Virus genome (UHGV): UHGV-0175797
Direction: 5' to 3' (one strand)
Length of the DNA: 23,684 nucleotides
Source of the DNA: a virus
In this document: piece after piece, positions 4,676 through 23,684 of the stretch
Layout: each line of letters starts with the position of its first letter
Position numbering within the stretch: position 1 is the first letter of the stretch
The notes under the pieces: model-generated
The model's input: the letters and a program-made list of their open reading frames with translations, nothing else
Told to the model about the DNA's origin: nothing
The model's database searches: none
Translations under genes and position numbers: made by a program

Positions 4676-4772
4676 CACCGCATTAAATCTTTAAATATCA
4701 CATCGTGTTAATTATGGCGCTCGCGTCAGGGGACTGCCTGCGCCTGTAAACTGAAAATAAGGAACAGGAAAT

Positions 4773-7896: not shown

Positions 7897-7924
7897 AGAT
7901 TTTTCCTTTTATGTTAATTGACAT

Positions 7925-12232: not shown

Positions 12233-12520
12233 ATGACAACCATTTTTATCAAACCCGCGCCGGGATGCCTGATCCGCGATCCGGACACCATGAAACCGCT
12301 GGCGCAGGAGGGAGAGGAAAAACCCTTCACCCCGTTCTGGTGCCGCCGTCTTAATGACGGGGACGTCATTGTGGTGGAAAAAGCGGCTGAAGCAGCACCG
12401 GCAGCAGCGTCTGCAACGACTGATGCCGCCGGAAAACCCGCGGGAGCGGCAGCAGAAAAACCTGCGACTGAAAAACCCGCGACTGAAAAACCCGCAGCAT
12501 CAGACAAGGGGACGTCCTGA
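12233..12520 (+). CDS. Mu gp38-like small protein with C-terminal Ala/Pro/Lys/Glu-rich repeat linker
   Basis: 95 aa; low-complexity C-terminus (KPATEKPATEKPA); its stop overlaps the sheath start (TGATG). Confidence 0.5.
   Translation: MTTIFIKPAPGCLIRDPDTMKPLAQEGEEKPFTPFWCRRLNDGDVIVVEKAAEAAPAAASATTDAAGKPAGAAAEKPATEKPATEKPAASDKGTS
12455..12499 (+). repeat. 15-bp tandem direct repeat (GAAAAACCYGCGACT, about 2.7 copies) encoding the (EKPAT)n linker
   Basis: Three consecutive near-identical 15-mers are directly visible in the sequence. Confidence 0.7.
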
Positions 12521-14022
12521 TGATTAACTTTGATTATATCGGCGATAACAATCGCATTCCGCTGGTACAGATTGAAATCAATAATTCAATGGCCGTGACC
12601 GGCACTCCACCACAGCGTCAGGCGGTACTGTTGTTTGGTCAGGCTGCAATGAAAGACACCACCATTCAGGGGCGCGGTCAGCTTGATGTACCAGTACGTA
12701 TTACCCGAGCTTCACAAGCAAGAGAACTCTGGGGGCGAGGTTCCATGATTGCACTGATGGTAGAGGAATTTATCGCCATTAACCCTGACACAGAGTTATA
12801 TGCCATTGCACAGGGGGCTGGAACAGGTCAGTCCAGGGCATGCGTGATGAATATCATTGGAACAGCATTGGCAGACGGGGTGTTAAGTGTTTACATCGGC
12901 GGTCGCCGTTACCTCCTGCCCGTCAGTAAGGGGAAAAAAGGTAAAGAGCTTGTGGAAGAGCTGGCTAAGGTCATTAACGCTGACACTGATGCGCCATTCA
13001 CTGCTATCGCAGCTGAAGTCAGTGGTGATAATGCTGAAGGACTTAAAGGGAGCATGGGGGTTAACGCCCGCTTTATCGGTGAATGCTCAGCTCATGATTT
13101 ACGGGTGAACTATTATGACGGTGAAACTACACCGGCCGGTCTTACGCTGGAGCTCGTCGCGCCAACACAGAAGGCAACAAACCCCGATATCACCCGTAGC
13201 GTCTCAGGGATGGGGAATCGTCAGTACAACTACATCGTCATGCCCTATAAGGATGCGGCAAATCTCAAAATTCTGGCGGATGAACTGCTGAAACGCTGGG
13301 GACCGGTAAAAATGTCGGACGGTATGGTCTGGATGGCGCATACCGGCACCTTCGGTACGGCAACCAGTTTTGGTGAATCCCGTAATGACTTCCTGTTTAC
13401 CTGCACTTCTATTCCTAAAGCACCAGAGCCGGATTATGTCTGGGCGGCCTCCATTTGTGCGGTCTGTGCGCCCTCCCTGTCAACGGATCCGGCCCGACCA
13501 TTACAGACACTGGCGCTGCCTGCCCGTATGGCACCTGAAGCACCGGCTCGTCTGACGCGGGAAGAGCGAAACAGCCTGCTTTATACCGGCATGTCCACGG
13601 TGACCGTTGCGGCCGCTGATGTGGTGCAGATTGAACGTCAGGTGACGATGTACCGTCAGAATGCATACGGCGAAAGCGATCCCAGCTATCTGGATGTAGA
13701 AACCATCTACACCCTGTCATATCTGCGTTATTCCCTGCGCACCTTTATCACGCAGCGTTTCCCGCGCCACAAACTGGCCGATAACGGTACTCCCGTCCGG
13801 CCCGGTCAGAATATCGTGACGCCGGAGATTATGACGCTCCAGCTGATTGCACTGGGGGAAGAATGGGTGGAACTCGGGCTGGTCGAAAATCTGGACACCT
13901 TTAAAAAGAATCTGCTCGTGGAGCGCAACACAAAAGACCGTAACCGTCTGGATGTGATGTGTACACCGGATCTGGTTAACCAGTTCCGCTTCATGGCCGC
14001 GCAGATCCGTTTCATTTTGTGA
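12520..14022 (+). CDS. contractile tail sheath protein (Mu gpL-like)
   Basis: 500 aa; the N-terminus (DYIGDNNRIPLVQIEINNS) is typical of myophage sheath proteins; followed by a tube gene as in Mu L-M. Confidence 0.85.
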   Translation: MINFDYIGDNNRIPLVQIEINNSMAVTGTPPQRQAVLLFGQAAMKDTTIQGRGQLDVPVRITRASQARELWGRGSMIALMVEEFIAINPDTELYAIAQGAGTGQSRACVMNIIGTALADGVLSVYIGGRRYLLPVSKGKKGKELVEELAKVINADTDAPFTAIAAEVSGDNAEGLKGSMGVNARFIGECSAHDLRVNYYDGETTPAGLTLELVAPTQKATNPDITRSVSGMGNRQYNYIVMPYKDAANLKILADELLKRWGPVKMSDGMVWMAHTGTFGTATSFGESRNDFLFTCTSIPKAPEPDYVWAASICAVCAPSLSTDPARPLQTLALPARMAPEAPARLTREERNSLLYTGMSTVTVAAADVVQIERQVTMYRQNAYGESDPSYLDVETIYTLSYLRYSLRTFITQRFPRHKLADNGTPVRPGQNIVTPEIMTLQLIALGEEWVELGLVENLDTFKKNLLVERNTKDRNRLDVMCTPDLVNQFRFMAAQIRFIL

Positions 14023-15017: not shown

Positions 15018-17075
15018 ATGGCAAAAAACCTGAAAGCCTCCCTGATTGTCGATTTACTCGGCAATATTTCCGCCAAATCCCGCCAGTGGTCACAGGAGCT
15101 GGGGGCATTCTCCCGTTCCGGCAGGACGGGGCTGGGTGGTCTTGGAAATGCAGCACGCCGGGCCGGTCAGGAAACAGAGCTTGTTGGCTCCCGTATGCAG
15201 CGAACGCTTGCCGGTGTTCGTGGCAGTATCCGCACGGTAACGTCAGATTTTGACCGCCTGCAGGGCAGCATTACCGGCACCATCGGGCGGATAAGCAACC
15301 TTTACGGGATGCTGGCGGGAGGGGCTGCGGTCTACGGTTTTAATAAAGCCTTTATCCGCCCGGCCGCAGAGATGGAGAACTATATTCTGCGTCTCAACGC
15401 CATTAATCATGGCGATAAGGCAAAAACGGAAGCAGTGAAAGCCTGGGCGGTACAGAACGCCAAAGACACCACCTGGGGGCTGGCGGGGGTTATGCAGGAA
15501 TACGCCTCCAGTCGCGGGTTTGGCATGAGTGACAGGGAAGCCCGTCGCTTTATTACCATGCTTCAGGATCAGGGCGGCTATCACGGCTGGTCACTGTCAG
15601 AGGCACAGGGTGCGTCCCTGCAACTCAAACAGATGTTTGCCCGCCAGAGTATCCAGGCAGCGGACGCCAATATTCTGACCGGATACGGGATTAACGTTTA
15701 CCAGTTACTGGCCGATAAGCTGGGTGTAAACCAGAAGATCATCCGTGAGAAAGGCGAGAAAGGAAAACTGGGACCGGACAGCATTCGCCTGTTATTTCAG
15801 GTGATGGCCGAACAGGCAAAAGGTGCCCAGAAAAACGCCATGAACTCATGGACGGGAATGACGTCCATGATGGGTGACGTCTGGGATCAGTTTGCCCGTG
15901 ACGTGATGGCGAAGGGACCGTTTGACAGCCTGAAAAAGAGCCTGAAAGGCTTTCTGGATTATGCCGATGCGGCACAGAAAAGCGGCTTACAGGATAAGCT
16001 GGCCACACAGACGGCCTCAGCACTGAATCAGGGATTTGAGTATGCCAGAGATGCTGCGACCGGCTTTTACCGGGCCATTCAGAAAGTCAGGGAAACGCTT
16101 CAGGCACTGCGCGACGCCGGTTATGGCGATGCGCTGGATCGTATTGGTCAGGGTGCGCAGACCGCCGCAAAGTACCTGATGTATATGTATCTCGCCTCCC
16201 GTGCGCTGAAGGTGCTCAGGTTTGCAGGGACGGGGGCATTACGTCTCGGCGCAACCCCCTTACGCTATGGCATGGCGATGACCTCCGTGCTGACGTCGCC
16301 CTTCCGCAAACCGCAGACCACTGTACCGGGAACGCAGCACGGACGCGCTGGACGGTTCCTGAATTTCCTTACCGGGGTAAATCCGGCTGCCGTTCAGCCC
16401 GTGCTGGTCACCAACTGGCCTGCGGGTGGCCTGGCCTCAGGTGGCGGGGATGTGGTGGTCAGCGGTGACGGCAAAACCGTGCGCGGCCGTAAAAAACGCG
16501 GCCCCGGACGTGGACGGGGTGTCACGACCGTCGTGACTGCCGGTGAGCAACTGGCGGAGAGTGCCGGTAAACAGGGCTTCTTCGGTCGTATGATGAGCCG
16601 TGCCGGTGGTCTGCTAACGGCGGCCGGAAACCGCATGGGGCTGGGGCGTTTTGCCGGGCTGTTCCGTGGTGCCGGTCGGCTGGGTGGTGGTGCCCTGTGG
16701 GCCGGTGCCATGGCGGCTCCTGTACTGCTGGACAGCAGCGCCAGTGCAGCCGATAAAGCCGGTGCCGTGGGTTCTCTTGCCGGAAGTATCGCCGGTGGCG
16801 CGCTGGGGGCGGCTGCCGGTCCGGTCGGGGTTGCCATTGGTTCCACGGTGGGCAGCTATCTCGGTGATTATCTGGGGGGCTGGCTGACGCAGGCCTGGCA
16901 GAAACTGCGTGGCAGCAGTGACGAAAACGGCGGACAGGCCACCGCGAAAACCGCCGCACGGGTGGAGCTTGTGGCCCCTGAAGGCTGGCGGGCGCGCAGT
17001 ATTGATGTGGATGATACCGCACAGCATGGCCTGGATGTGAACGTCTGGAACGGAGGGAACTATGGCCTCTACTGA
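15018..17075 (+). CDS. tail tape measure protein
   Basis: 685 aa; helical N-terminal two-thirds and Gly/Ala-rich C-terminal region; position between the chaperone and the DNA-circularization-like gene. Confidence 0.85.
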   Translation: MAKNLKASLIVDLLGNISAKSRQWSQELGAFSRSGRTGLGGLGNAARRAGQETELVGSRMQRTLAGVRGSIRTVTSDFDRLQGSITGTIGRISNLYGMLAGGAAVYGFNKAFIRPAAEMENYILRLNAINHGDKAKTEAVKAWAVQNAKDTTWGLAGVMQEYASSRGFGMSDREARRFITMLQDQGGYHGWSLSEAQGASLQLKQMFARQSIQAADANILTGYGINVYQLLADKLGVNQKIIREKGEKGKLGPDSIRLLFQVMAEQAKGAQKNAMNSWTGMTSMMGDVWDQFARDVMAKGPFDSLKKSLKGFLDYADAAQKSGLQDKLATQTASALNQGFEYARDAATGFYRAIQKVRETLQALRDAGYGDALDRIGQGAQTAAKYLMYMYLASRALKVLRFAGTGALRLGATPLRYGMAMTSVLTSPFRKPQTTVPGTQHGRAGRFLNFLTGVNPAAVQPVLVTNWPAGGLASGGGDVVVSGDGKTVRGRKKRGPGRGRGVTTVVTAGEQLAESAGKQGFFGRMMSRAGGLLTAAGNRMGLGRFAGLFRGAGRLGGGALWAGAMAAPVLLDSSASAADKAGAVGSLAGSIAGGALGAAAGPVGVAIGSTVGSYLGDYLGGWLTQAWQKLRGSSDENGGQATAKTAARVELVAPEGWRARSIDVDDTAQHGLDVNVWNGGNYGLY

Positions 17076-18420
17076 CACGCCGGGGCGTGGCTCCTTTCGT
17101 GGCGTACCGTTCCTGGTTTATCAGGAGCAGCGGGAACGGGGCGGACGTAACATTGTGCGCCGTGAATACCCACTGCGTGAAAGCGGCGGTGCGGATGATC
17201 TGGGGCCAAAACTCCCGGAGTTCACATTCACGGTTCTAGTGACCGGAGACGATCTTCAGACACAGCGAAGCCGCCTGCGTGATGCGCTGCGTGCACCCGG
17301 TGCCGGTGAACTGATGCACCCGGATTACGGCACGTTAAACGTGCTGATAAACAGCTTTGAAAGCCGTTATAACGCCAGCGAGCAGGGAACGGTTGAGTTC
17401 ACGATCAACGTGATCCCCGCCAGTGACGATACCGCCCCTTCGGTGGCAGAAGATACGGCAGCTGCGCTGGAGCAGAAAAGCGGCTCAGCAATGAATCAGC
17501 TGTTTAACACACTTTCAGACGGCTGGACGGTGATTTCAGACGGTCTGCATGATGTACAGGCCATGACCGACACCATCAGCGATAAAATTGATGCGCTGGA
17601 GAATGCCGTTTCAGGGATGGGGATTGTGCAGGATATCAGTGCCTTTACGGCCAGTTTTACTGCCCTGAAAGGGAATGCCGCCGCCCTGATTAATGCGCCC
17701 CGTCGCATGGCTGAATCGCTGGCCGGAATGTTTGCCGTGCTGGCGGGGCTGCCCGGCGATCCTTCCCTGTCGCTGACCGGAAAAGCCGGAACGCCGTCCG
17801 GCAGCCTGACCACAAACCGTGACAGCACGACAGAGCAGGCCATGCCGCAGCTGTACCGCACACTTTCTTCCCTGCGTTACACCCTCAGCGAACAGGATGA
17901 TCCGCAGCGCCTGATTGGTCTGACGCCTGCGGCACAGAACAATATCCGTCTGCTGCGGAGCGTCATGCAGAGTGCAGCCCTGGTGTCGCAGGCGCAGACG
18001 GTCGGAAAACTGCTGGATCAGGTCATCCGGCAGAATACGACGCACGTTCAGGATACTGACCGTGCGGGCGGACTGGCCTGGCTGGAAAGTTCTGCTGATG
18101 TGCAGCGTATCAACCGGGATTTGAGCGATGCCATGGAACAACAGGTGCTGGATCTGTCCGCACAGGGCCATACCGGCACCGCCCTTGCATTACGTGATGC
18201 AGGGCTTGCGCTGACAGAAGATTTAACCACGCGGAGCGTGCATCTTCCCGGTGCTTTTCAGGTCATGGTGCGAACCACCGAACCGGCACTGGTCACGCTG
18301 TACCGTGCCACCGGTAACAGCCGCCGCTGGCAGTATTTTGTCCGCAGAAACAATATCCCCGATCCGGTTTTTGTTCCGGGTGGCCGCCGCGTGGAGGTGA
18401 TCAGTGAGCAGCAGGATTGA
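17062..18420 (+). CDS. DNA circularization protein N-like (Mu gp43 family)
   Basis: 452 aa; N-terminal region (GRGSFRGVPFLV...GGRNIVRREYP) is typical of the DNA circulation protein family; syntenic with Mu N. Confidence 0.75.
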   Translation: MASTDTPGRGSFRGVPFLVYQEQRERGGRNIVRREYPLRESGGADDLGPKLPEFTFTVLVTGDDLQTQRSRLRDALRAPGAGELMHPDYGTLNVLINSFESRYNASEQGTVEFTINVIPASDDTAPSVAEDTAAALEQKSGSAMNQLFNTLSDGWTVISDGLHDVQAMTDTISDKIDALENAVSGMGIVQDISAFTASFTALKGNAAALINAPRRMAESLAGMFAVLAGLPGDPSLSLTGKAGTPSGSLTTNRDSTTEQAMPQLYRTLSSLRYTLSEQDDPQRLIGLTPAAQNNIRLLRSVMQSAALVSQAQTVGKLLDQVIRQNTTHVQDTDRAGGLAWLESSADVQRINRDLSDAMEQQVLDLSAQGHTGTALALRDAGLALTEDLTTRSVHLPGAFQVMVRTTEPALVTLYRATGNSRRWQYFVRRNNIPDPVFVPGGRRVEVISEQQD

Positions 18421-20562: not shown

Positions 20563-21644
20563 TGCCTTATCAGCCTTTACCGCTGGCACAGTTAATCACG
20601 CAGACACAGCAGGATATCAGCCAGCGCCTGCCCGGCTCGCAGCCGGGTGTGAATGAAACCACCCTGAATGCCATTGCTTACGCTCAGGCAGGGTTATCTG
20701 CTCAGGAGCATGAGCATCTGGCCTGGATTGCGCGTCAGATCATCCCGACCGAAGCCGATGAAGCCGAACTGCTGAAACACTGTGCATTCTGGGGCGTCAT
20801 GCGTAAGCCTGCCTCTCGGGGGGACGGGCCGGTTCAGCTGATGCTGACCACGGATGCGGGGATCAAGGAAGGTGTGCTTCTCCAGCGAAGTGATGGCGTG
20901 GTTTACCGTATCACCACCTCCCTGACCGGTAAGGCCGGTACGCTGAATGTCAGTGTGGAAGCCGAAAGTGCCGGTCGTGCGGGGAATGCCCCGGCAGGGA
21001 CAAAACTGACATTTATCACACCGCAGGCGGGGATCAACCAGACGGCCACGGTGACCGGAACGGGGATCACCGGTGGTGCGGATGTGGAAACCGTGCCGGA
21101 GCTGCTTTCCCGTCTGGTTTTCCGGGTGCAGAATCCACCGTCCGGCGGCACGCAGTATGATTTTGAACGCTGGGCGCGTGAAGTGCCGGGCGTGACGCGG
21201 GCATGGTGCCGCCCGGAATGGCCGCAGGCGGGCAGCGTGGGGGTAACGTTTGTTCAGGATAATAACCCGGATATTTTCCCCGGTGACGGTGATGTTCAGC
21301 GGGTGGCGGATTATATCCGCAGTCATGATGATCCGGCGACCGGCCAGCCTGTCGGACAGCCTCTGGGGCCGACGGTGACCGTGTTTAAACTGACCAATAA
21401 GCCGGTGCCCTTCAGCATCAGGATCATCCCGAAAACACCGGAGAATCAGGCGGCCGTAAAACAGGCGCTGACCGACCTGTTGTATAACGAATCCCGGCCC
21501 GGCGGTCTGGTTCTGCCGTCGTCTTTCTGGCGGGCGGTGGCAGGGGTGAAAAATCTGGAGGATTTTGAAGTGCGCAGTCCGCTGACGTCAGTTCAGGCGG
21601 GAGACAGTGAGCTGCTGACGGTAGGAGAAATCACATGGCTGTAA
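20562..21644 (+). CDS. baseplate J-like wedge protein (Mu gp47-like)
   Basis: 360 aa against about 355 aa in Mu; coupled start (TAATG); sequence character typical of the baseplate J family. Confidence 0.8.
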   Translation: MPYQPLPLAQLITQTQQDISQRLPGSQPGVNETTLNAIAYAQAGLSAQEHEHLAWIARQIIPTEADEAELLKHCAFWGVMRKPASRGDGPVQLMLTTDAGIKEGVLLQRSDGVVYRITTSLTGKAGTLNVSVEAESAGRAGNAPAGTKLTFITPQAGINQTATVTGTGITGGADVETVPELLSRLVFRVQNPPSGGTQYDFERWAREVPGVTRAWCRPEWPQAGSVGVTFVQDNNPDIFPGDGDVQRVADYIRSHDDPATGQPVGQPLGPTVTVFKLTNKPVPFSIRIIPKTPENQAAVKQALTDLLYNESRPGGLVLPSSFWRAVAGVKNLEDFEVRSPLTSVQAGDSELLTVGEITWL

Positions 21645-22195
21645 CCCTGACCCCGCATCAGCGCGCCCTGTTGCAGTTACTGCCTGACGGGCTGGCATGG
21701 GACAAGCGTCCGTCATCCGTACTGGCATCATTATGTCTGGGCCTCAGTCATTCGACAGCGCGTGTATCCTGGACGGGTAAACAGCTGCTTGCCGAGCGTT
21801 TCCCTGACACGTCGCGCCTGCTGCTGGAAGACTGGGAGCGTTATCTCGGGCTTCCCGAGTGTGATATGGCCGGAGCCACCCTCACGGAGCGACAGCGTTA
21901 TGCCGGAAATAAATACCGGATGAAGCCCTCGCTGAACCGTGAATTTTATATCCGGTTTGCGGCGGAGTTTGGTTATCAGATTGACATTCAGCCCTCACCG
22001 GATTCGCAGTGGGTCAGTATTGTCACGATTAACAGTGAAACCGGCTACCGGAATATGAATGTGCTGGATGATATTCTCACGCCGCTGCGTATTTATGAAG
22101 GCGGTGCGCTGGAATGTATTCTGAACCGTTATAAGCCTGCATGGCAGACGTTTATTTACGTTTATGCAAACAGCCATGAAGAGGAGACTATTTAA
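21635..22195 (+). CDS. tail protein (Mu gp48-like, DUF2313/YmfQ family)
   Basis: 186 aa against about 187 aa in Mu; motifs [11 protein letters not shown] and [12 protein letters not shown] are typical of the family. Confidence 0.7.
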
Positions 22196-23076
22196 TGTTT
22201 CATGTTGATAATAATTCCGGCGTGGCGAATATGCCTGCGCTGGCACCGGCGCAGAGTAATACCACCACCTGGTTTACCGAAGGTGACGGACAAAAAGGTA
22301 TCAGCTGGATTGGTCAGGACTGGCTGAATATTCTCCAGGCCGAACTGCTGAATATTCTGGCTGAAGCCAGTATTCAGCCGGATAAGGCGCAGTTAAACCA
22401 GCTTACGCTGTCCATTAAAGCCATTATCGCTGCGAATGCCTTTTCCCGGAAAAATAACCTGAAAGAAATTGCTGATGCCGGTGCGGAGGCCCAGCGTCTG
22501 GCCCGTGGTTATCTTGGTCTGGGGACGCTTGCCACAAAAAACAGTCTTGGTCCCGCTGACGTTAATGCCCTGGCGAAGGATCAGAATCTCGCCGACCTGG
22601 AGAATAAGGGAACCGCCCGTAATAATCTGGATGTTTACAGCAAAAGCGAAGGTGATAACCGTTACCTGCGCAGGGAGCAGAACGGCGCAGACATTCCGGA
22701 TAAAGGGGCTTTTATCGATAACGTCGGTTTACGGGAAACGGTAAACAGGGCGGCGAATGCCCTGCCATCGGACGGCACCGCCGTTGCCGCGAACAGGCTG
22801 GCAAATGCCCACACAATTAATGGTGTTCCCTTTGACGGGACGCAGGATATCACTATCTCATCAGGAACAGTAACCGCCATAAGACTGGGGTCGGTGACCG
22901 CACATATGCCCGGAACATGGGAAAGCTGGGATCTGAATCTGGGGGGCGGCAATGTTCTTACCGGAATTAAAGTACAGGATGTCGGTAAGAATACGGCAGA
23001 TAACGTCGGCGGCGTGTATTACCGGCCGTTGCAGTATCTGTTAAATGGAGCATGGGTGACGGCTGCAAGTATATAA
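22195..23076 (+). CDS. tail fibre protein (constant N-terminal part plus currently fused variable C-terminal part)
   Basis: 293 aa; N-terminus typical of P2/Mu-type fibres; contains a gix-like crossover site at 22712..22737; AT-richer 3' part. Confidence 0.75.
22712..22737. other. gix/hix-like 26-bp recombination (inversion crossover) site inside the tail fibre gene
   Basis: TTATCGATAACG-TC-GGTTTACGGGAA. Against the Mu gixL site as I remember it (TTATCCAAAACC-TC-GGTTTACAGGAA in this orientation), about 22 of 26 positions match, including the central TC. Confidence 0.6.
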
Positions 23077-23084
23077 TGATATTC

Positions 23085-23110
23085 AGAAGGCCTTCCGGCC
23101 TTCTTTATTA
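23085..23110. terminator. bidirectional terminator-like hairpin between convergent fibre and chaperone genes (GAAGGCC-ttcc-GGCCTTC, A/T runs on both sides)
   Basis: Perfect 7-bp GC-rich stem with a 4-nt loop, followed by TTTATTA on the + strand and preceded by T-rich sequence on the minus strand. Confidence 0.6.
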
Positions 23111-23629
23111 CTGTGGCTGCTCAGGCCATTTAATGGCGTTAAATTCAGCTTCTGTTTTAATGGCGGGTAGTTCCATTTTCTTCACCTGACTGATGTATGC
23201 CATCCATTGGGTAAGTGCTGCTCTGTCTTCATCGCTGATGGTGCCCAGTTGTAGCTCCGTTCTCCAGTCATTAATTTTTTCATATGCCTGATTAAGATAT
23301 GACTGGCGCATTGCTTCCAGTTTTCTTGCGTAGTTAACCGGAATACGGGAGATTATGCCATTATCAAACTTCCAGTTTCCTGAAATATCCGTGCCTTCAG
23401 GGAGTTCATCGACCTCAACCACAGAAAACCCCGCAGGATACAGCGCCGAGGCGTCCTGTGATATTGAGCAGATAACGCCGCTGTCAGGTGTTATGCAAAG
23501 TTTATATTTTTTGGTGAATAATGGCAGGGATTCGTAGAAATCCTTACCATCTTCACTCTGGAAATACTGAACATTATTACCATATGGCATATTTTCAGGA
23601 TAATAACGGGTTATATTTTTTAGTTCCAT
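23108..23629 (-). CDS. tail fibre assembly protein (Tfa / Mu U-family chaperone), opposite strand
   Basis: 173 aa; typical Tfa features (N-terminal MELKNITRYYPEN, central Tyr/Asp-rich region, C-terminal AEFNAIKWPEQP); AGGAGG RBS on the minus strand; AT-rich. Confidence 0.8.
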   Translation of the reverse strand: MELKNITRYYPENMPYGNNVQYFQSEDGKDFYESLPLFTKKYKLCITPDSGVICSISQDASALYPAGFSVVEVDELPEGTDISGNWKFDNGIISRIPVNYARKLEAMRQSYLNQAYEKINDWRTELQLGTISDEDRAALTQWMAYISQVKKMELPAIKTEAEFNAIKWPEQPQ

Positions 23630-23684
23630 AAAATCCTCCTGGAAATAAATCTGTTTTAAAATATATTATTTACTGACTATTTAT

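Follow-up and report, generated by a model that had tools for sequence, protein, structure and literature searches.

A probable Gin/gix-type invertible tail fibre segment with a single chaperone gene in a Mu-like prophage of Escherichia coli

Introduction

The G segment of bacteriophage Mu has been known as an inversion switch since 1980, and tail fibre chaperones (tail fibre assembly proteins, Tfa) are considered to be obligatory, gene-for-gene partners of the tips of Mu- and P2-type fibres. The Min system of p15B is a multiple-inversion fibre shufflon. Here, we describe the right-hand end of the virus genome UHGV-0175797, a stretch of 23,684 nucleotides (hereafter the window, meaning this stretch at its full length), which very probably ends within an invertible host-range segment of the Gin/gix type, belonging to a Mu-like Escherichia coli prophage, and includes the left two-thirds of that segment.

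Among the described systems, the p15B Min and FRphi shufflons share with this locus a Gin-family invertase and alternative fibre C-termini, but the window segment has two crossover sites only. FRphi, in which Gin drives a three-tip fibre locus (PMC13418256), also differs by its lambda-like lysogeny control genes, and the paper describing it never uses the term 'tail fiber assembly' (PMC13418256). A serine invertase lies beside an invertible fibre-tip segment in P1 (C segment, Cin) and in e14 (P segment, Pin), as it does here, and the fibre tip of a P1-like phage is 52% identical to arm A, the variable fibre end that is fused in the window. However, both P1 and e14 carry two back-to-back chaperone genes, U/U' in P1 and, in e14, tfaE/tfaP (PMC12529663). 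In a prophage of E. coli FDAARGOS_1059 (CP066032.1), a programmed inversion in the Mu S homologue has been confirmed by long reads (PMC9881135); that locus, unlike ours, is of the canonical type with two Tfa genes.

This kind of system is well known. What is new is a one-chaperone architecture that is conserved across a clade, together with a chaperone-antisense orientation that is both prevalent and selected. We found no description of the one-chaperone layout in the literature searched, the coverage of which was incomplete, and Sp18 and related prophages are described there merely as 'Mu-like'. The analysis confirms an active host-range switch in Mu-like prophages of E. coli, O157:H7 included, which automatic annotation hides. 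It also draws attention to a conserved, selected and predominantly expressed Mu/P2-type tip for which the only chaperone gene close by is in the opposite orientation; knowing how this tip folds would reveal either chaperone promiscuity or chaperone-free folding of some tips. Short swappable tips, with about 70 variable residues, may also be of use for engineering the host range of phages and tailocins.

Crossover sites, invertase and alternative fibre ends

The window falls in the late region of a Mu-like prophage of E. coli. Over positions 21600-23684, several finished E. coli chromosomes are 100% identical to it, and the right-hand continuation of the window was read from genomes with this full identity. 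Positions to the right of the window are given for the locus of strain JE86-ST05 (NZ_AP022815; hereafter L001), in which adding 13,599 to a position gives the corresponding window position. The fibre gene, the left crossover site and the gene that precedes them are organized as follows:

21635-22195, directly upstream of the fibre gene: baseplate wedge protein of the Mu gp48 family (Pfam Phage_Mu_Gp48)
22195..23076, + strand: tail fibre gene as fused at present (constant part Sc plus arm A), 293 aa, Mu S homologue
22195..22724, + strand: constant fibre part Sc, outside the invertible segment and conserved in the clade (about 95-100% identity), where the arms vary
22712..22737, read on the + strand: left crossover site, gixL-like, 26 bp, TTATCGATAACGTCGGTTTACGGGAA, with the central dinucleotide TC at 22724-22725
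22717..22865: left arm of an imperfect inverted repeat, formed by the first ~45 codons, which the two variable arms have in common; complementary to L001 10302-10450
22725..23076, + strand: variable arm A, the last ~117 fibre codons, of tip type VQDxGxxxADNxGGVYYRP, with no same-strand chaperone gene after it

The fibre ORF matched the solved Mu fibre chains (PDB 5yvq_A and 8ju3_A, E 1e-46) and, over its full length, the PHROG 1833 family 'tail fiber protein' (E 7e-141); its residues 1-198 were 47% identical to Mu S. The Sc part would serve to attach the fibre to the product of the preceding gene, the baseplate wedge protein; in Mu, the corresponding contact is made between the N-terminus of the fibre and gp48 (PMC11915804).

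The left site was compared with the true Mu sites, taken from AF083977 (gixL, TTATCCAAAACCTCGGTTTACAGGAA; gixR, TTCCTGTAAACCGAGGTTTTGGATAA). It agreed with gixL at 22 of 26 bases, whereas the next-best 26-mer of the window reached 17 of 26 and the maxima of 40 Markov resamples ranged from 15 to 18. Within the fibre reading frame, the site spans codons ~173-181 (F-I-D-N-V-G-L-R-E), which align with F-I-Q-N-L-G-L-Q-E at the boundary between the constant and variable parts (Sc/Sv) of the Mu fibre, and the crossover at codon ~177 falls where this boundary lies in Mu. Such a match, at the same position of a Mu S-like gene, reflects homology of the whole locus and not a chance motif.

The remaining parts of a switch were found at the window edge and to the right of it:

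23681..23684, - strand: end of arm B, with its stop codon (23681-23683) and the last base of its final sense codon (23684); the rest lies beyond the window
L001 10082-10456, - strand: alternative fibre C-terminus (arm B), annotated in RefSeq as an incomplete 'phage tail protein'; it maps from window position 23681 on
L001 10430-10455: right crossover site, inverted, TTCCCGTAAACCGAGGTTTTCAGGAA, with the core GA, 345 nt past the window end
L001 10521-11093: serine recombinase (Gin-like), 190 aa, separated by a 65-nt gap from the right site on its left; Resolvase E 1.6e-51, HTH_7 E 4.9e-15

The right site agreed with the Mu sites at 21 of 26 bases. The inner half-sites of the two sites are identical (GGTTTACGGGAA) and their cores, TC and GA, are complementary. 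The recombinase is 74% identical to Gin, matches Gin crystal structures (PDB 4m6f and 3uj3) at E 1e-88, and contains MLIGYIRVSTNDQ, which places the serine at position 9. A repeat search showed that the inverted repeats run about 150 bp into the arms (86 nt at 93% identity plus 50 nt at 84%). When the 1,317 bp between the cores were flipped in silico, an in-frame fibre of 296 aa (Sc plus arm B) was obtained, with Tfa next on the same strand. A third crossover site, which would let Tfa flip alone, was sought in 18 kb of L001 and rejected, as no candidate had 7 mismatches or fewer.

The original prediction, made from the letters of the window alone, had proposed a gix-like site within the fibre ORF at 22712..22737 and a G-segment-like inversion that exchanges fibre C-termini. 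The site held when it was compared with the actual Mu sequences, and the switch itself is borne out by the sites, the invertase, the occurrence of both orientations and one exact natural inversion. The alternative fibre C-terminus had been anticipated beyond the window edge and lies there on the minus strand, with only its stop codon inside the window; the inverted second site and the serine recombinase gene, to be looked for on the right, are both present.

From these elements, a mechanism can be proposed. A Gin-like invertase, probably the product of the adjoining gene, would recombine the left site with its inverted copy 1,317 bp downstream, presumably with the use of Fis and an enhancer. 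Inversion would keep the first ~177 fibre codons and swap arm A (117 codons) for arm B (119 codons), while placing the single Tfa gene in sense orientation directly behind arm B. In the window orientation, the arm-A fibre would be made, late transcription would meet a hairpin after the fibre gene, and Tfa would be antisense. Each arm may recognise a different receptor, and arm A would be expected to give infective particles on E. coli.

Natural inversion of the segment

The configuration of the window was found full-length, at >98% identity, in about 18-20 finished E. coli genomes. The flipped configuration was present at 99.7% identity or more in DLI.5a, TOE17, NCCP 13983 and FORC_043, and at 95.9% in AST46. 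Two copies in opposite orientations occurred within one genome in DLI.5a, TOE17 and AST46, and likewise in the IMG/VR loci L054 and L055, which belong to one genome.

In NCCP 13983 and FORC_029, the prophage is the same, and so is its insertion site. Over 26,498 nt, the only difference between them is an exact reverse complement of 12549-13829 (1,281 nt), with 0 mismatches outside the inverted stretch and 0 inside it after reverse complementing. An exact inversion bounded by the sites in a near-isogenic pair indicates that the switch has operated. The breakpoints are confined to at most 19 identical bases starting at the core dinucleotide, and all polymorphisms of the repeat arms moved with the segment, so that the exchange must have taken place within the 19 nt that start at the core. 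Ten of the 41 IMG/VR contigs of the clade end at the left site or inside the repeat, which fits either mixed orientations or a plain effect of repeats on assembly.

Several points weigh against the interpretation of the window as part of an active switch. The gin gene and the second site lie outside the window and are deduced from genomes that are 100% identical to it over 21600-23684, and the evidence for inversion comes from finished genomes of relatives, not from the window's own sample. The left site has a G beside the core where the consensus has a C, which could slow recombination. The known Fis-dependent enhancer is a 65-bp element with two Fis sites, in the 5' end of the invertase gene and about 100 bp from one crossover site (PMC3798978). 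A Fis-like 15-mer (nt 71-85, centre at nt 78) is kept in all five invertase genes compared, but its partner 48 bp away appears under a loose pattern only, and the motif is degenerate. Finally, the counts of orientations given below cover related genomes and not phylogenetically independent events.

Comparison with the Mu G segment

The window segment is a Mu G segment (Gin/gix, S-U / U'-S') in mechanism and ancestry, short of the paired sets of tip plus chaperone. It occupies the same place in the genome, after the baseplate genes gp47 and gp48 and before gin, com and mom. The two segments share a homologous 26-bp site at the same codon position with a TC core, together with the closely related invertase described above, and the Tfa of the window is homologous to U and U'.

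They differ in size, the window segment being 1.32 kb long with arms of 116-126 codons, as compared with ~3 kb and 318-334 codons in Mu. The window clade has one Tfa gene where Mu has two, and a spacer of 51-121 nt precedes it, in contrast to the coupled start in Mu. In addition, the inverted repeats of the window reach ~150 bp into the arms, and its outer half-sites are not identical. Lastly, lysogens of the window clade show an orientation ratio of ~90:10, whereas the two orientations are reported to be roughly equal in Mu lysates obtained by induction (PMC4406740).

A single Tfa gene per segment across the clade

Downstream of the fibre gene, the window contains the following features:

23085..23104, + strand: G+C-rich hairpin AGAAGGCCTTCCGGCCTTCT followed by TTATT, terminator-like (terminator scan; palindrome), between the two convergent genes
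23108..23629, - strand: single Tfa (Mu U-like) gene, 173 aa, antisense to late transcription in the window orientation
23630..23680, - strand: A+T-rich spacer of 51 nt, from the arm B stop to the Tfa start (2 nt in Mu)
23635..23640, - strand: Shine-Dalgarno sequence of Tfa, AGGAGG, 5 nt before the ATG, as read from the sequence

The Tfa protein belongs to the Pfam family Caudo_TAP (PF02413; E 4.8e-19, 69 bits versus a cut-off of 22) and to PHROG 136 (E 5e-56), and matches the Mu U chain PDB 5yvq_B (E 4e-16). By BLASTP, its identity to Mu U and U' was 28-32%. Both this family membership and its position after inversion, behind a fibre tip bearing the expected motif, agree with the predicted chaperone role. 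Its nearest relatives gave no signal as to which arm is its cognate one, since identity was alike (24-37%) to P1 U/U', Mu U/U', POP15 and Av-05.

A search of genome contigs with the Sc protein yielded 4 loci. IMG/VR viral contigs were then scanned with an alignment of four Sc sequences; 78 loci were annotated with Tfa and invertase profiles, and both arms were read from every site. Relatives with an Sc 45-49% identical to the query (Mu proper) had two Tfa genes back to back, followed by gin. Relatives with an Sc 63-100% identical had a single Tfa, in either orientation (at least 30 contigs). A single Tfa was also found in the O157:H7 type (L004), in the E. coli variants L005 and L006, and in a Citrobacter braakii prophage (L009). 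The paired layout of tip plus chaperone seen in Mu, P1 and e14 is absent in the window clade, in which one Tfa is present, always behind arm B in loci of the E. coli type.

In every E. coli-type locus of the clade with both arms readable, the arm convergent to Tfa was arm A, except in L050, where the Tfa-less arm has a different, non-canonical tip. The arm A tip reads VQ(D/E)xGxxxADN(I/V)(G/A)GVYYRP...N(G/N)AW(V/R)T..S(I/V), in arms of 116 or 126 codons. The arm followed by Tfa has one of at least three unrelated-looking tips, namely B1 (FRPLQKLVGGTWITVSQL, the partner in the window), B2 (YYRPVQFLIDGSWKTASSA) and the Mu S-like B3 (YYRQIQYCINGHWVSAASI), and the same Tfa (85% aa identity) occurs behind different B tips. 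Along L001 and L005, identity was 80-97% over Sc, arm A, the hairpin and Tfa, and fell to 25-48% over the spacer and the unique part of arm B, which makes arm B plus the spacer an exchangeable cassette. Spacer lengths before Tfa ranged from 51 to 121 nt across the clade. The 121-nt spacer of B3-type segments (L005 2937-3057 / L097 6436-6560) contains a perfect 9-bp hairpin, TCTGAAATA-N5-TATTTCAGA.

The locus of C. braakii ATCC 51113 (L009 6001-11486, the same as L060 of IMG/VR) has three arms (starts at + 6826, - 8850 and - 9216), three repeat copies and sites, and one internal Tfa; judging by this sequence arrangement, it is a multiple-inversion locus, which brings it close to the shufflons. 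There, the arm-A tip type is on the Tfa-adjacent arm. Downstream of gin, the same prophage has a second fibre, with collagen repeats and its own Tfa.

The arrangement first read from the window, in which the fibre ends at 23076 and a Tfa with its own ribosome-binding site lies convergently on the minus strand, was confirmed by the ORFs 22195-23076 and 23108-23629 and by the AGGAGG motif. The original prediction had also called the want of a same-strand chaperone behind the fused arm an oddity. This oddity is real, as a 31-nt gap with the hairpin is all that separates the fibre gene from the convergent Tfa, and no same-strand Tfa follows. It had been ascribed to a rearranged segment or to an 'off' configuration. 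The first explanation is not supported, because the clade as a whole keeps a single Tfa in each segment, and the second fares no better, the arm-A orientation being common and its tip under purifying selection, as detailed below.

Prevalence and selection of the arm-A orientation

The prophage family was present in ~230 of 5,426 finished E. coli genomes, O157:H7 included, with up to 6-8 matching places in some of them. The O157 representative, from O157:H7 ECP19-198 (L004), was 84.6% identical to the window over the switch region and is presumably of the Sp18 type. RefSeq annotation conceals the switch in these genomes. In the O157 type, only the last 67 codons of an intact fibre ORF of 295 aa (L004 1501-2388) are annotated; in other genomes, the fibre carries the label 'hypothetical protein', and arm B (L001 10082-10456) is flagged as a pseudogene 'missing N-terminus'.

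Arm A was the fused arm in most cases, and the bias had the same direction in all three sets examined: 23 versus 7 among IMG/VR contigs, ~18-20 versus 5-6 among finished genomes for the window type, and, for the O157 type (queries from L004), 186 genomes with a full-length Sc-arm A junction versus 16 with Sc-arm B. Arm A was thereby fused in ~90% of finished genomes. Inversion is slow in Mu, in which lysates grown by infection keep one orientation and those from induction are reported to hold roughly equal shares (PMC4406740). If it is similarly slow here, a prophage would keep the orientation of the particle that delivered it, and this strong bias suggests that arm A may be the tip that works on E. 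coli.

Arm A showed a dN/dS of 0.13-0.15 at a dS of 0.34-0.38 (L001 versus L005 and L006), which indicates purifying selection. Moreover, the ORFs of the arms were intact in all but one locus of the clade. Three E. coli isolates from mice (M1, M3 and M18) carry prophage derivatives in which arm B and the right site are missing and only the last 67 nt of gin remain; in them, the arm-A fibre is convergent to an intact Tfa:

L097 5001-6740: locked derivative of isolate M3
L098 5201-6940: locked derivative of isolate M18
L099: locked derivative of isolate M1

M1 and M3 represent one clone, with the prophage in flgL, and in M18 the prophage lies in a restriction gene. The deletion junction is identical in both lineages, but the flanking phage genes differ (dS 0.05-0.1). 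An identical junction with different flanks and insertion sites implies that the locked form moved between backgrounds, by infection, transposition or recombination.

Folding of the arm-A tip

On balance, we consider it probable that the locus is a single-chaperone host-range switch, in one of two forms: either one Tfa, transcribed from whichever strand, matures two tips (three in Citrobacter), or inversion switches the fibre back and forth between a bare tip, free of chaperone, and one that depends on Tfa and is capped by it.

To account for Tfa expression in the arm-A state, promoters were sought. A promoter scan of the window revealed no minus-strand sigma-70-like site for Tfa, and in a position weight matrix scan of the 460-700 nt upstream of Tfa, run on four clade members, no site exceeded the 95% level of shuffled sequences. 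The C-dependent late promoter element of Mu, ATAA(C/T)CC, which Plys, PI and Pmom share, was absent upstream of Tfa. A phage-specific activator motif, TGTTAATT, was rejected as a candidate, because its one-mismatch copies were not enriched (16 found versus 14.7 expected). Exact copies of TGTTAATT occur only twice in the window, at 4706-4713 and 7912-7919, both intergenic on the + strand and each followed within a few bases by GGCG; the motif could be an activator or late-promoter element of the window phage. A related sequence, AGTTAATCC, is found on the minus strand immediately past the right site.

A plausible, although still tentative, explanation is that arm A folds without the Tfa of the phage. 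The fibre would then be free of chaperone in the common arm-A state, and dependent on Tfa, and probably capped by it, in the arm-B state. In that case, inversion would change not only the sequence of the fibre but also its composition, and a Mu/P2-type tip would fold without the usual chaperone. In the arm-A state, Tfa is antisense and lies beyond the + strand hairpin, and the promoter scans described above are consistent with its silence. Arm A is also both selected and prevalent, and this prevalence would suggest that it infects E. coli if inversion is slow; in L050, moreover, the Tfa-less arm carries a non-canonical tip. However, arm A bears the C-terminal ...YYRPxQ..NGxW... motif common to the fibre tips of Mu, P1 and P2. 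Homologues of both arms occur among the fibre tips of P1, P2, SfMu S' and Vequintavirinae phages, and those of arm A also in POP15 and Av-05. In all five homologous loci that were opened, the arm-A-like tip was followed by a same-strand ORF of ~170-230 aa, which argues for chaperone dependence. In POP15 and Av-05, the annotation of this ORF is tail fibre assembly protein, and in C. braakii it matches the Tfa profile; by annotation label alone, it is a 'tail fibers protein' in a P1-like phage and a 'hypothetical protein' in phage 19-1-2.

It is possible, but rather unlikely, that one Tfa serves both arms and is expressed in the arm-A state from a leftward transcript whose start would lie within arm B, within the spacer or immediately beyond the right site. 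Arm A and Tfa have been inherited as a block while arm B and the spacer were replaced, and the occurrence of the same Tfa behind unrelated B tips suggests that it is not tip-specific. In C. braakii, one Tfa is downstream of two alternative arms. The strong ribosome-binding site of Tfa and its long spacer, where Mu has a coupled start, are compatible with separate expression without demonstrating it, and Tfa has stayed intact in the arm-A-locked derivatives that lack gin. Against this, no promoter-like signal rose above chance, transcription would converge on the late operon, and Tfa differs by 1 nt between the locked derivatives M3 and M18, which is too little to gauge selection.

Supply of a Tfa for arm A by another prophage is improbable. 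We hold it equally improbable that the window orientation is a non-productive 'off' state or a degenerate rearrangement. This last explanation would account for a tip of a chaperone-associated family with no same-strand chaperone, but it agrees poorly with an architecture conserved across the clade and in Citrobacter, with selection on arm A and its predominance in finished genomes, with the intact ORFs in nearly all loci, and with locked arm-A derivatives at two insertion sites. Finally, general RecA recombination over the ~150-bp inverted repeats, with no part played by the sites and invertase, is hardly credible as the source of the inversions between genomes: imperfect repeats do exist, and contigs stop at them as an assembler would at any repeat, but the first repeat polymorphism lies 19 nt inside the site centre, a 19-nt exchange stretch is too short and too specific for RecA, and an intact Gin homologue adjoins the segment.

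Neighbouring genes

According to the RefSeq annotation of the matching chromosomes, the genes upstream of the fibre encode the tail sheath, tube, tape measure, DNA circularization protein, baseplate V, gp46, J/gp47 and a protein of the YmfQ/Mu gp48 family. In JE86-ST05 (L001 1-4821), frameshifts are annotated in the sheath, tube, tape-measure and circularization genes, whereas their counterparts in the window are intact (ORFs 12520-14022, 15018-17075 and 17062-18420). This difference implies either that the window comes from another host or that the frameshifts of JE86-ST05 are assembly errors.

To the right of the window, the region between gin and com/mom (L001 11179-13850), at a position where Mu has nothing, encodes a protein of 684 aa (PHROG 143) that combines a SASA (sialate O-acetylesterase) domain with a DUF6645 domain; DUF1378 and DUF826 genes come next. 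This SASA/DUF6645 module is presumably similar to the NanS-p region that Stx phages have downstream of stx.

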